DNA of 32,454 nt from a virus. Lineage: Duplodnaviria; Heunggongvirae; Uroviricota; Caudoviricetes. The position numbers were made by a program. The stretch is taken from the IMG/VR virus record IMGVR_UViG_2874945390_000003; one strand, given 5' to 3'. Position 1 is the stretch's first letter, and each line of letters starts with the position of its first letter. Shown piece after piece: positions 12,001 to 15,000 of the stretch.

Positions 12001-15000
12001 CACCTTAATCTCCAGTTTTAGCCGCTCATCACTTTGTTTTCTGTCTGAGGGTTCATGCTGTACCCAGTTGTAATAACCGCTCCTGGATACACCAAATACC
12101 TGACACATCGCTTCAATGGGAAATTGTTGTCGCCATTGTTCGACTAACGCGTATTTTTCAGCGACTCCTGTGCAAAATACGCTGTTGCTTTTTTTAATAT
12201 ATCTCGCTCAAGGCGAGCTTCATTTAACGCCTTACGCAGTTGCAGAATTTCAGATTCCAGTTCAGCCACCGTGCGGGAACCAGGAGTACCGAGCCCTTTT
12301 CTGGCGGCGGTAACCCATTGTCCTAAAGTGCCTTCAGGAAGGGATAATCGGGAAGCGCCTTCACTGATCGAAAGTTGATTTTCAAGAACCGTTCTGACAG
12401 CTTCGGCTTTGAACTCTTTAGAGTAACGTTGGGTTTTTCTGCTCATTATTAGCTCCTTCTGATGCCATTCTATTTCAGGAAGGAGTGTCCGTTAAACTCA
12501 GGCTACCTCATATTGGACGTGAAGAGTGCATTTGCATCATGGTATCCCACGAGAGACATTTGTATGCAACTGACGGATACATTCTAACCCACAACACCAC
12601 GCTATACAGCCAGATGGCAATCAACTGCGCAGTGCATGAGAAAAAGCCCGCTCTGATGTTCAGCCTTGAAATGCCAGGTGATCAGATACTGGAAAAACTG
12701 GTAGGGCAGAAGTCTGGTGTTAACCCGAATATTTTTTACCTTCCGGCGACAAATGACGCCGATGACGGCTATCAGGGTGATTACGATGGTGACTTCAACA
12801 GGGCGATCGAAACAGCCAATCGCTTGAGTGAAATCGACCTGCTTTACATCGACGACACGCCGGGATTATCTCTGGCTCAAATCGTCAGCGAAAGCCGTCG
12901 AATCAAGCGAGAAAAAGGATGTGTTGGCATGATTCTGGTCGATTACCTGACACTAATGACCGCTGAAAAGGCCGATCGCAACGACCTTGCCTACGGCATG
13001 ATCACCAAAGGACTGAAGAACCTTGCCAAAGAGCTTGATTGCGTTGTTGTGCTTCTGACGCAGCTTAACCGCGCACTGGAAACCCGAACCAATAAACGCC
13101 CATTACCAAGTGACTCACGAGATACAGGGCAGATTGAACAGGATTGCGATTATTGGGTGGGGATCCATCGTGAAGGTGCTTTTGATGACAGTGTTCCACC
13201 TGGTGAAACCGAACTAATCCTTCGTCTCAATCGTCATGGCAATACCGGCACGGTGTATTGCATTCAGGCAAATGGCGCTATTTATGACACAGACCAACAG
13301 TCTGCTGAAATGCGCCGACGTGAACGCGAGGAACCGCAGTCCAAGAAGAAAGGAGGATTCTGATGACCATCTACATCACTGAGCTTGTAACAGGCCTGCT
13401 GGTAATCGCAGGCCTTTTTATTTGGGGGAGAGGGAAGTGAACGATAGCTACCGACAGTTTGAAAACTGGTGGTCAAAAGACAAAAGCCAGTTCACAGGAG
13501 ACGATGAATTAAAAGAGTTTGCCTGGGTGATATGGCAGGCATCGCGCTCTGCTATTGAACTGGATATCGACTGGCCCGAATCGAATGACGACTTTTGGAA
13601 AGATGGTGAAGAAGGTGCTTATGCGATGGGTTATGAGGATGGGCGTGACAAAACGGTAATTGCAGTAATGAAAGCCATCAGAGCCGCTGGAATTAAAGAG
13701 AAGAATTTTCGATGAAGCAAACAATCTTCCTCCGAACTAAGCAACAACAGCAAGCCGCAATAAATGCCATCCTCTCAACTCCTCTCGATAAAGACAAGCC
13801 AGTCACCATCCGCATTACTGACTACAAGCGAAATCTTGACCAGAACGCAAAATTTCACGCGATGCTGGCGGATATCGCTCGTCAGGTTCAATGGTGCGGC
13901 AAATGGTTAAAACCAGAACAATGGAAGGTTTTGTTGATCAGCGGTCATGCAGTGGCAACAAAACAGGAAGCTGATGTTTTGCCCGGCCTTGAAGGAGAAT
14001 GCGTCAACATTCGCGAAAGCAGCGCGCAGATGAGCGTGAAGCGCATGGCAAGTCTGATCGAGTACACAACAGCCTGGGCTATTGGTCAGGGTGTCAGATT
14101 TACCGACAGGAGGTATGAATGAGGCGACAGCGACGAAGTTTCACCGACATCATCTGCGAAAACTGCAAATACCTTCCAACGAAACGCTCCAGAAATAAAC
14201 GCAAGCCAATCCCAAAAGAATCTGACGTAAAAACCTTCAACTACACGGCTCACCTGTGGGATATCCGGTGGCTAAGACATCGTGCGAGGAAATGACTATT
14301 TATCCGGTGCGCCGCCAGAATGACGGCGCGGTGTGGTTAAACGAAGCGGATCTGGAGTTTTTTTCCAGTAGCGCGGGCGAATTTTTTTAGGGTGGCAAAT
14401 GATGGGCCGCTGATACCTGATGCGAGATTACTTTCCATTCTGGTGATCGCGGTCGCTTTTGTTCCCATTCGCTCGGCAACTTCAGCCTGAGTTAAGCCAG
14501 CTTCTTTGCGTGCTGCCAGCATTTCATCAAGCAGTGCGAATTCGTCAGCGATAGCGTCGTATTCTGCTTTAAAAGCCGGGTCTTCCATCCATTTGGCTGC
14601 CATTTCGTCGTGTGTCATGGTGGGGAGAGTGCGTTTACCAGTCATGCTTAACCTCCTTCATTCTGGTTTCAGCTTTCTTGCGTTCGGCTGGCGGTGTTTT
14701 CTGCGTTTTCTTTACAAAACTATGCAGCATGATGATGCGTTTCCCTGTCAGAGTGCAGTAAAAAACACGCGCGATCCCATCGTTGCCTTTAATTCTGAGT
14801 TCGAAAAGTCCGTCACCAAAGGCGCTGGTGTGAGGTTCTCCGAGATTGCTGCCATATATCTTCATACGTTCAACGAGATGTTGGTATCGGGCACGCATAC
14901 TCAATGGAAGCCGATCGACTTCCAGCCTTACATCTTCACTGTAGTATTCGATAGTGTAGTTCATAGGTATCAACATAACAAAATCGTTATATGCATTCAA

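Follow-up and report, generated by a model that had tools for sequence, protein, structure and literature searches.

A probable toxin-first HigBA/Tad-Ata toxin-antitoxin operon in an optional cassette of a defective lambdoid prophage

The RelE/ParE toxin superfamily includes both gyrase poisons and mRNA endonucleases. Classical HigBA systems (Rts1, E. coli K-12, V. cholerae) are toxin-first pairs of a RelE-fold ribosome-dependent mRNase and an XRE-HTH antitoxin, with autoregulation. The founding representatives of the Pfam Gp49 group are the Tad-Ata modules (Paracoccus pAMI2, phage N15 gp49/gp48, SXT; Dziewit et al., J Bacteriol 2007, via PMC5906591). These are toxin-first pairs with an HTH antitoxin, are carried by mobile elements including a temperate phage, and were shown to stabilise replicons.

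The HigBA pair of S. pneumoniae (SpHigBA; 6AF3/6AF4; Kang et al., FEBS J 2020, PMC7984235) is chromosomal and belongs to a Gram-positive host. It is toxin-first, its Gp49-type toxin ends in a long C-terminal helix, toxin residues R68, R73, F90 and K92 are required according to mutagenesis, and the XRE antitoxin binds promoter palindromes, of which there are four. Direct evidence that a Gp49-type toxin cleaves mRNA at the ribosomal A site comes from M. tuberculosis HigB1 (Rv1955; 7AWK, 7NBU; PMC9098466), the toxin of the HigBA-SecB "TAC" system; R68, R77 and K95 of this protein were proposed to be catalytic, and mutagenesis confirmed K95. TAC requires a SecB-like chaperone and an antitoxin with a ChAD tail. 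Another system, paaR2-paaA2-parE2, occupies an antirepressor-flanked hot-spot of lambdoid and Stx prophages, including cryptic prophages of E. coli O157:H7 (PMC8630535), and runs antisense to the early genes. It combines a ParE toxin with a ParD-like antitoxin and has a separate HTH regulator as its third component.

The window analysed here is the 32,454-nt stretch of the Caudoviricetes record IMGVR_UViG_2874945390_000003 (IMG/VR). It contains a real, ordinary toxin-antitoxin (TA) pair of the HigB/HigA (Gp49-XRE) kind, which is already annotated in reference genomes: PGAP and phage records label it as RelE/ParE toxin or as HigB/HigA, and the RefSeq name is "type II toxin-antitoxin system RelE/ParE family toxin". 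Nothing on the enterobacterial prophage clade of this pair was found in the literature. The pair is very probably a bipartite type II TA operon of the HigBA/Tad-Ata class that lies, as a 717-bp moron, within the nin region of a defective lambdoid prophage. The genes and their surroundings are as follows.

14293-15009, either strand: optional TA cassette, seen as an indel of 717 bp when compared with phages whose ninE lies immediately next to the isrK promoter
14635-14964, minus strand: Gp49/HigB-like RelE-fold toxin gene, 109 aa (ATG 14964, stop TAA 14637-14635)
14337-14645, minus strand: XRE-HTH antitoxin gene (HigA/Ata-like), 102 aa, N-terminal helices followed by the HTH
13712-14122, plus strand: ninB (Pfam)
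14119-14295, plus strand: ninE (Pfam)
15010-15039, plus strand: promoter-like site of isrK (TTGACG 15010-15015, TATATT ending at 15039), start at about 15046
15046-15122, plus strand: IsrK sRNA gene (Rfam RF01394, 70.6 bits with a gathering threshold of 50, model positions 1-77 of 77)
15150-15234: C4 antisense RNA (RF01695, 75.9 bits)
ending at 15963, after the C4 RNA: ORF6N/P22AR_C antirepressor

The toxin matches the Gp49 family (PF05973) with E=7.4e-26 and 90.5 bits (cut-off 23.9) over model positions 3-90 of 90, and the antitoxin matches HTH_3 with E=3.4e-11. Both ORFs lie on the minus strand and share 11 nt (14635-14645). The HMM assignments thus bear out the original prediction of a toxin-first Gp49/HigB-like ORF overlapping an HTH-XRE gene. 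Homologous toxins, distributed among 2,875 protein clusters, are 109-111 aa long, and the PGAP gene call in E. coli RMDEC465 is the identical 330-nt gene. A longer, 136-aa ORF from ATG 15045 was rejected, since it exceeds the homologues in length, would overlap the isrK promoter and 5' end, and is not required for the Pfam domain, which is already complete from ATG 14964. The plus-strand ORF 14506-15009 (167 aa) was taken to be an antisense artefact of the two genes. Although the prophage is decayed, 11 other prophage contigs encode a toxin with 100% identity to this one.

The AF2 model of the toxin (pLDDT 89.9) is a beta-sheet with flanking helices and a long C-terminal helix (residues 92-106). 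The top Foldseek matches are S. pneumoniae HigB (6AF4, TM 0.74-0.78) and M. tuberculosis HigB1 (7AWK/7NBU, TM 0.71-0.74), while V. cholerae HigB2 gives TM 0.53-0.58; the toxins of classical HigBA belong to other Pfam families and match the present one weakly. The pocket of MtHigB1 (E66/R68/R77/F93/K95/Q98/K99) aligns with E55, R57, R66, F83, K85, Q88 and K89, which are the catalytic equivalents in the alignment with SpHigB and MtHigB1. R68/R73/F90/K92 of SpHigB fall on R57/R66/F83/K85, and the proposed catalytic residues of MtHigB1 lie within the same set. The absence of RelE-fold catalytic residues had been named as the observation that would overturn the toxin assignment; all seven equivalents are present, and among 25 toxin homologues (61-94% identity) six of them are invariant and Q88 is mostly conserved. 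The invariant residues extend over beta- and gammaproteobacteria and Nitrospira. By analogy with the closest solved relatives, the free toxin could be a ribosomal A-site mRNase.

The antitoxin model (AF2, pLDDT 81) contains helices 12-20, 23-49, 53-60, 64-76 and 83-93, and the protein ends just past the last helix of the HTH domain. Fold searches returned generic XRE matches only, at TM of about 0.5, and added nothing to the sequence evidence, in which the best PDB match is HigA of complex 6AF3. An alternative start at Met10 (14618) was rejected for the clade represented here, given the consensus Shine-Dalgarno sequence (SD) 6 nt upstream of ATG 14645. Some distant antitoxin homologues are 93-96 aa long.

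Both proteins match the two chains of a single solved complex, SpHigBA 6AF3, which is the best PDB sequence match of either partner (toxin E=1.5e-5, or 2.6e-8 with a profile; antitoxin E=1e-3). The two systems agree in gene order, in the Gp49 type of the toxin and its long C-terminal helix, and in having equivalent active-site residues, though structure-based identity is only about 19-20%. The comparison with Tad-Ata was made at the level of the PF05973 family; in N15, a plasmid prophage, the sense of post-segregational killing is obvious, whereas the present cassette belongs to an integrated prophage. The pair shares the Gp49-like fold of MtHigB1, but unlike TAC it has neither a third gene nor a C-terminal extension of the antitoxin.

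An antitoxin homologue directly follows the toxin in 158 of the 163 related loci, with an overlap of 4-20 nt in most, and dN/dS values of 0.02-0.16 for both genes show that toxin and antitoxin are under purifying selection. Together with the domain E-values and the 2,875 clusters, these figures put the pair far outside what chance would produce. No third gene is conserved among 152 loci, and the gene past the antitoxin in the window is the convergent ninE; a tripartite TAC-like or PD-lambda-2-like system was rejected for this reason. Neither protein has a full-length match to an anti-phage defence system listed in PADLOC-DB 2.0: residues 49-99 of the toxin match only the C-terminal 50 of 293 positions of the NsnC model (E=8e-10), and the antitoxin gives weak generic HTH hits. 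Three features of the HigBA/Tad-Ata class are found here: a Gp49 RelE-fold toxin, a toxin-first bicistron with an XRE antitoxin and conserved mRNase residues. HMMs, structure, catalytic residues, two-gene synteny and presence/absence agree with the self-contained TA module originally proposed.

Expression of the pair could be governed by the following elements.

14972-15000, minus strand: predicted TA promoter (-35 TTGAAT 15000-14995, 17-nt spacer, extended -10 TG 14980-14979, -10 TATGTT 14977-14972)
14976-14989, either strand: predicted operator, the 14-bp palindrome TAACGATTTTGTTA, which overlaps both the promoter spacer and the -10 box, of which it takes in the first two bases
14651-14658, minus strand: strong antitoxin SD (AAGGAGGT), inside the 3' end of the toxin gene and 6 nt before ATG 14645
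14309-14329, minus strand: GC-rich hairpin (inverted repeat), which closely follows the antitoxin stop and lies at the cassette's left edge

The predicted promoter agrees with the consensus at 8 of 12 positions and was missed by a generic promoter scan. Its elements are conserved in 72 diverse loci, where TTG is found 11 nt before the palindrome in 72-82%, the A of the -10 box in 75% and its T in 96%; the positions flanking the conserved ones carry about 0 bits. A perfect 4+4 palindrome with a 6-nt spacer is present in 111 of 122 distinct upstream regions. The family consensus is TAACA(T/A)ATTTGTTA, i.e., TAAC-N6-GTTA, from which the operator in the window differs at two central positions (G and T in place of A and A). 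The half-sites of the 111 palindromes are TAAC/GTTA (93), TAGC/GCTA (17) and TACC/GGTA (1), and the palindrome ends 10-11 nt upstream of the start codon in 89. The half-site covaries perfectly with antitoxin residue 63, which is K/Q/R/H/L versus T/S (143 loci, at least three lineages). The covariation partners are residue 63 of the recognition helix and operator position 3, that is, one residue per base pair. Autoregulation by the antitoxin through the promoter palindrome is therefore predicted, with strong comparative evidence; one conserved palindrome would be used here, in contrast to the four of SpHigBA (PMC7984235).

The -10 box is separated from the toxin ATG by 7 nt in the window and by 6-7 nt family-wide. 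The toxin start has no SD here, nor in 103 of 111 distinct loci, whereas in 106 of the 111 the antitoxin start follows an SD of 5 nt or more. Because the -10 box is so close to the ATG and an SD is lacking, the toxin mRNA is probably leaderless or nearly so, as judged from promoter-ATG geometry. Leaderless TA mRNAs are common in M. tuberculosis, according to the abstract of PMC8485053; no mention of a leaderless toxin mRNA was found for SpHigBA (PMC7984235), and no description of leaderless HigB-type toxins in proteobacteria was found in the literature. In rnlAB and mqsRA, which are also toxin-first, antitoxin excess has been attributed to extra antitoxin-only promoters, and such internal promoters are known in other reverse-order TA systems (PMC7167474). 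A promoter scan of the sequence detected no internal antitoxin-only promoter in this operon, for which an excess would instead follow from leaderless versus SD-led translation.

In the lysogen, a sigma-70 promoter of its own would drive the TA operon, with transcription running opposite to that from PR. The toxin cistron would be poorly translated from a leaderless mRNA, because it starts 7 nt after the -10 box without an SD, and the overlapping antitoxin cistron would yield an antitoxin excess despite the toxin-first order, because it has a consensus SD. An antitoxin dimer bound to TAAC-N6-GTTA in the promoter spacer and -10 box could repress the operon, while the N-terminal helices of the antitoxin would neutralise the toxin. 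Toxin left free would move into the ribosomal A site and cut mRNA there. In both ribosome-dependent cleavage and autoregulation the pair would resemble classical HigBA.

The strand assignment of the original prediction was correct, since ninB and ninE, both identified by Pfam, are on the plus strand and the TA pair is convergent with them. Only a hairpin without a U-tract separates ninE from the antitoxin stop. On the minus strand it folds with -18.5 kcal/mol (z=-2.9) and has been kept along with the cassette in POCJ13 and PhiR5_2. A canonical bidirectional terminator is not supported, as neither strand has a U-tract, the plus-strand fold (z=-1.2) is no better than shuffles and the terminator scan was negative; the hairpin is possibly a weak terminator or a 3' stabiliser of the TA transcript. 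On the other side, a plus-strand terminator had been predicted just beyond the module. The stem-loop and T-run do exist at 15101-15122 (15101-15118 according to the scan), but they belong to the IsrK sRNA (RF01394) and lie outside the TA module; the promoter-like site and this terminator agree with both ends of the IsrK gene. The divergent -35 boxes of the TA and isrK promoters are 9 bp apart, and the pair stands back-to-back with isrK at a fixed distance of 78-84 nt in about 35 of 54 enterobacterial prophage loci.

A ParE-like gyrase poison instead of an mRNA endonuclease is highly improbable. The NCBI name is merely "RelE/ParE family toxin", ParE2 structures are among the weak fold matches and a parE2-type system is located at the equivalent prophage hot-spot in Stx2a phages. 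Against this, ParE2 structures reach TM 0.43-0.48 (E ~0.08), compared with 0.71-0.78 for the HigB mRNases, the Pfam scan of the toxin gave no ParE (ParE_toxin) hit, the basic and aromatic RNA-cleavage residues of HigB are conserved, and the toxin has the long C-terminal helix that characterises ribosome-binding toxins of the Gp49 type. The arrangement with isrK raises another possibility, that the pair is a transcription-regulator module in which only the HTH protein is functional, for example on the isrK/C4/antirepressor switch, and an inactive Gp49 protein serves as a co-regulator only. The adjacent -35 boxes would suit it, and M. tuberculosis HigB2 and HigB3, also of the Gp49 type, are not toxic on expression (PMC9098466). 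Such conservation of the catalytic equivalents would nevertheless be unexpected in a dead enzyme, the pair with a matching operator occurs in about 100 loci of bacteria without an isrK match, and empty-site phages have isrK without the cassette; this explanation is quite unlikely, if somewhat less so than a gyrase poison.

Convergence with ninB and ninE, with only the U-less hairpin in between, and an orientation opposite to the matched phage genes in every enterobacterial prophage locus examined would also fit a role at induction. Antisense transcription of the cassette from N-antiterminated PR would hit the TA promoter and stop the resupply of antitoxin, and the freed toxin would shut off host translation or kill carriers of defective prophages. 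Opposite orientation is usual for lysogen-expressed morons, however, and therefore requires no special explanation, and the TA family is mostly chromosomal, in contexts outside phages, so that an induction role has hardly any probability. A broader joint reading has a small chance: coupling of the cassette to the lysis-lysogeny circuitry of the prophage and, separately, a leaderless-toxin/SD-antitoxin pairing that is general in toxin-first operons. Coupling is allowed because the TA promoter is back-to-back with the isrK-C4-antirepressor region and the cassette is antisense to N-antiterminated PR. Prophage induction or IsrK activation could then cut off the supply of new antitoxin and set the mRNase free; alternatively, isrK could be modulated by the HigA-like repressor. 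A leaderless toxin combined with an SD-led antitoxin could be a general device setting the antitoxin:toxin ratio in toxin-first operons, one for which no earlier description was found. For the HigBA/Tad-Ata operon preferred here, the most likely roles, which are conjectural, would be to make the prophage segment persist selfishly (addiction), to defend against other phages, or both.

For the prophage itself, the pair has little weight, being one more TA moron already labelled in RefSeq. The regulatory layout of the family is unusually clean and is conserved from Enterobacteriaceae to Nitrospira (-35 box, 14-bp operator, -10 box, start 6-7 nt further on and an SD on the antitoxin alone) and offers a directly testable hypothesis for antitoxin excess in toxin-first operons. 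The covariation of residue 63 with operator position 3 provides a handle on the separation of specificity among related HigA-type repressors.

The cassette is mobile, with presence/absence polymorphism among related prophages, where such a comparison had been suggested. Its bounds were placed by aligning it to the empty site in phage JLK-2012 and to POCJ13/PhiR5_2, in which 14309-15027 is shared and the left-hand context differs. The TA pair is present in 31 of 5,426 complete E. coli genomes, 2,260 of which contain the flanks, and many Stx phages have empty sites like that of JLK-2012. The site beside isrK and the antirepressor is a hot-spot where TA systems replace one another; the paaR2-paaA2-parE2 proteins of the equivalent hot-spot are unrelated to the present pair. 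The antitoxin scar inside the parE2 locus of Stx2a phages bears on the persistence of Stx and Shigella prophage remnants. It is a 69-nt remnant of the antitoxin 3' end, found at the equivalent position in 45 phage records, nearly all of them Stx-converting, and in the one record examined it sits between parE2-like and paaR2-like genes.

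Two overlapping minus-strand ORFs are found exactly where the original prediction had placed a toxin-antitoxin (TA) pair, and they lie opposite the early-right genes ninB and ninE, as it had proposed. Both nin genes are on the plus strand, so early-right transcription and the pair converge. The two genes share 11 nt. Taken mechanically, the upstream minus-strand ORF opens at 15045. The start is assigned to ATG 14964 because homologous protein clusters (n=2,875) are overwhelmingly 109-111 aa long, because the Pfam Gp49 domain is already complete when the toxin begins there, and because PGAP makes an identical 330-nt toxin gene call in an E. 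coli locus with 99.6% identity.

Features of the TA locus (promoter, operator, toxin start codon and Shine-Dalgarno motifs read from the window sequence)
13712-14122, plus strand: ninB, early-right gene
14119-14295, plus strand: ninE, early-right gene
14309-14329, minus strand: GC-rich hairpin without a U-tract, the only mark at the 3' end of the TA operon
14645-14337, minus strand: antitoxin gene (downstream ORF), 102 aa
6 nt before ATG 14645, minus strand: antitoxin Shine-Dalgarno, AAGGAGGT
14964 (ATG) to 14637-14635 (stop TAA), minus strand: toxin gene, 109 aa, start backed by three lines
14977-14972, minus strand: -10 box, TATGTT
14980-14979, minus strand: extended -10, TG
14989-14976: predicted operator, TAACGATTTTGTTA
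15000-14995, minus strand: -35 box, TTGAAT

HMM assignment places the toxin in Gp49 (PF05973, E=7.4e-26) and the antitoxin in HTH_3 (E=3.4e-11) of Pfam, in line with the predicted identities. NCBIfam gives RelE/ParE and HTH matches, all sub-threshold; in PHROGs the toxin falls into phrog_2523 (unknown function) and the antitoxin into a transcription-regulator family. By sequence, each partner has its closest solved relative in one and the same complex, S. pneumoniae HigB-HigA (6AF3/6AF4; single-sequence E-values: toxin 1.5e-5, antitoxin 1e-3; toxin profile: 2.6e-8). AlphaFold models the toxin (pLDDT 89.9) as a four-stranded sheet, to which a short strand is added at the N-terminus, with two helices in the N-terminal part and one long C-terminal helix. 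Its best Foldseek matches are S. pneumoniae HigB (TM 0.74-0.78) and, ranked with it, M. tuberculosis HigB1 (7AWK; ribosome-bound 7NBU; TM 0.71-0.74), followed by V. cholerae HigB2, YoeB and RelE; ParE2 stays at 0.43-0.48. The antitoxin model (pLDDT 81) consists of two helices and then an XRE helix-turn-helix.

The RelE-fold catalytic residues, whose loss would have spoken against the original prediction, are present. By mutagenesis, RNase activity and toxicity of S. pneumoniae HigB need R68, R73 and F90, K92 having a smaller effect (PMC7984235). In M. tuberculosis HigB1 the pocket around the ribosomal A-site codon is formed by E66, R68, N73, R77, F93, K95, Q98 and K99, and K95A abolishes toxicity (PMC9098466). 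With numbering offsets checked against PDB-chain alignments, the window toxin aligns E55, R57, R66, F83, K85, Q88 and K89 to these known sites; across 25 homologues (61-94% identity) each of them except Q88 is invariant.

Toxin relatives were collected from 160 loci (80 from bacterial genomes, spanning Enterobacteriaceae, many Beta- and Gammaproteobacteria and Nitrospira, and 80 from viral contigs); four annotated phage or E. coli records bring the set to 164, with the toxin found in 163. The toxin-first order is retained in 158 of the 163, where the start of an antitoxin homologue overlaps the end of the toxin gene by 4-41 nt (8-14 nt in most). No third downstream gene is conserved in 152 loci, so the system is bipartite and not of the TAC type, which agrees with the self-contained module originally proposed. 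Measured pairwise against the window, dN/dS lies at 0.02-0.16 for the toxin and antitoxin genes alike. A PhiR5_2-type clade (L002, L122-L133) is distinguished by an antitoxin dS of 0.3-0.55 against the window and a toxin dS of about 1.8: the window resembles this clade much more closely in the antitoxin and the 3' toxin part than in the 5' toxin part, and DNA matches end at query position 434-487. The operon thus looks like a mosaic, which suggests recombination within the toxin gene.

Of 122 distinct sequences lying 5' of the toxin gene, 111 carry a perfect palindrome of two 4-nt halves separated by 6 nt (TAAC-N6-GTTA in 93, TAGC-N6-GCTA in 17, TACC-N6-GGTA in 1); in 89 of the 111 its end lies 10-11 nt ahead of the start codon. 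Information content, computed on 72 diverse loci (<72% toxin identity), is concentrated in a TTG 11 nt 5' of the palindrome, in the whole 14-mer TAACA(T/A)ATTTGTTA, including its unconstrained centre, and in two bases, A and T, of a -10 hexamer whose start overlaps the palindrome's last two bases; positions on either side hold about 0 bits. These conserved elements are identified from sequence as a predicted sigma-70 promoter with a 17-nt spacer and a -10 box ending 6-7 nt before the start codon. With the -10 box this close, the toxin mRNA should be leaderless or nearly so, and the absence of a Shine-Dalgarno at 103 of 111 toxin starts fits such a start. Residue 63 of the antitoxin sits at the N-terminal end of the recognition helix; it is K/Q/R/H/L in all 124 TAAC/GTTA loci and T/S in all 19 TAGC/GCTA or TACC/GGTA loci, the latter representing at least three lineages; this covariation with the half-site supports the predicted operator.

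In toxin-first operons, antitoxin excess is attributed to extra antitoxin-only promoters (reviews, PMC7167474). The promoter scan detected none within the locus. A Shine-Dalgarno of at least 5 nt precedes 106 of 111 antitoxin starts, and differential translation (leaderless toxin versus Shine-Dalgarno-led antitoxin) is a plausible alternative source of the excess. Gene callers requiring a Shine-Dalgarno would be expected to miss leaderless starts. In phage POCJ13 the toxin start is intact, yet the RefSeq annotation has only 87 aa. In PhiR5_2 an ATA replaces the ATG at the conserved position and a shorter 76-aa 'HigB' is annotated; this toxin may be inactivated.

The plus-strand terminator that the original prediction placed just beyond the TA pair exists as a stem-loop with a T-run; it belongs to the neighbouring module, since Rfam assigns 15046-15122 (+) to the sRNA IsrK (70.6 bits, full model) and the promoter-like site and terminator fit this gene. 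A C4 antisense RNA follows at 15150-15234 (+; 75.9 bits).

The isrK side of the cassette (plus strand)
15010-15039: isrK promoter-like site, TTGACG-18-TATATT, start at about 15046
15101-15118: IsrK terminator, stem-loop and T-run, at the 3' end of IsrK
15286 (approximate PGAP-equivalent start; module 15010-15963): ORF6N/P22AR_C antirepressor, downstream of C4
16032-16760: KilAC/Rha antirepressor, after the ORF6N/P22AR_C antirepressor

A complete isrK-C4-antirepressor module (15010-15963, +) thus adjoins the TA cassette, in the same isrK-antirepressor arrangement as in Gifsy-1 (PMC4825925). The mechanical antirepressor ORF from TTG 15127 runs over the C4 RNA; its length is probably overestimated. 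Of 54 prophage loci from enterobacteria, about 35 have the cassette back-to-back with isrK, independently of what flanks the antitoxin side, the isrK 5' end being 78-84 nt upstream of the toxin ATG. In the window (14995-15015) 9 bp separate the divergent -35 boxes; beside the POCJ13 cassette, the isrK promoter is reduced to its -35 part.

Presence at this position in related prophages is variable. Compared with phage JLK-2012 and with the many Stx phages in which ninE leads directly into the isrK promoter, the window has 717 extra bp (14293-15009) replacing 9 bp. The cassette, as the equivalent of 14309-15027, recurs in POCJ13 and 75/02 Stx, two Shigella phages (92.7% identity), and in PhiR5_2 (about 80-84% over the aligning part); in these three phages it lies between a ren-like region and antirepressor/ninB genes. 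TA DNA is carried by 31 of 5,426 complete E. coli genomes, all copies being chromosomal with no close copy found on plasmids, and the flanking ninE/isrK/C4 sequence is matched in 2,260. A 9-nt direct repeat, TATCCGGTG, is located at 14262-14270 (inside the 3' part of ninE) and at 14301-14309, the end of the second copy coinciding with the left edge of the POCJ13-shared sequence; the repeat may be a trace of recombination or a coincidence.

A 69-nt antitoxin 3'-end remnant (88-90% identity), encoding ...FATLKKFARATGKKLQIRFV*, matches in 45 phage records, almost all of them of Stx-converting phages. A single record was inspected, that of vB_EcoP_phi346 (L165:1501-1568): there a ParD-like antitoxin gene comes first, and the remnant follows with a 93-aa ORF on one side and a 101-aa HTH gene on the other. 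This neighbourhood resembles the three-gene arrangement of paaA2-parE2-paaR2, flanked by antirepressor genes, which suggests that one TA system took another's place at an antirepressor-flanked hot-spot.

The best-supported reading is that the pair would work as a HigBA-type system: the antitoxin would repress the operon at the promoter-embedded operator (autorepression) and neutralise the toxin by protein-protein binding, and free toxin would cleave mRNA in a ribosome-dependent manner. Related Gp49 modules stabilise replicons, as in Tn3-family transposons (PMC7157771) and Tad-Ata (cited in PMC5906591). Known cases of HigB-type toxins in anti-phage defence need a third component (PMC9519451, bioRxiv 2024.02.24.581848), which is absent at this locus, and PADLOC matches the toxin only partially, to the NsnC C-terminus. 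The match joins toxin residues 49-99 (the conserved core) to the C-terminal 50 of the 293 NsnC model positions (E=8e-10), and suggests that a larger candidate defence protein contains a fused Gp49-like domain. The family is well known, although this clade of it is uncharacterised; RefSeq and one phage record (there 'toxin HigB / antitoxin HigA') already annotate the pair accordingly, and a specialist would find it unsurprising; the leaderless toxin/Shine-Dalgarno-led antitoxin architecture, the residue-63/operator covariation and the isrK-adjacent TA-replacement hot-spot are modest, testable additions.

The window represents a Shigella-type lambdoid prophage that is decayed and truncated, with no Q, lysis, terminase or head genes in it. 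The middle IS600 splits a dnaB-like replicative helicase gene (N-terminal part 9616-11265, C-terminal part 12485-13363).

Features of the surrounding prophage
384-1540, 11290-12446 and 17602-18758: IS600, 99.9% identity to annotated IS3-like IS600
3852-3910, minus strand: lambda cIII thermoregulator element (Rfam, 88.5 bits)
16798-17307: HNH/NUMOD4 endonuclease gene
18838-19728: IS66 transposase fragment, after the IS600 at 17602
19980-23114: baseplate genes, directly after the IS66 fragment
23896-25092, minus strand: IS110-family transposase
30919-31098: CssrB, a Shigella chromosomal sRNA (Rfam, 230 bits)
31855-32058: IS009 (Rfam, 129 bits)

Tail-fibre genes are followed by an IpaH-type NEL E3 ubiquitin ligase gene at 29148-30791 (-). 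The gene for a cI-like repressor (6978-7715) has stayed intact, and so has the TA pair, whose toxin is 100% identical to that of 11 other prophage contigs; such preservation in a decayed prophage fits a self-preserving or host-useful module, which is not proof of one.
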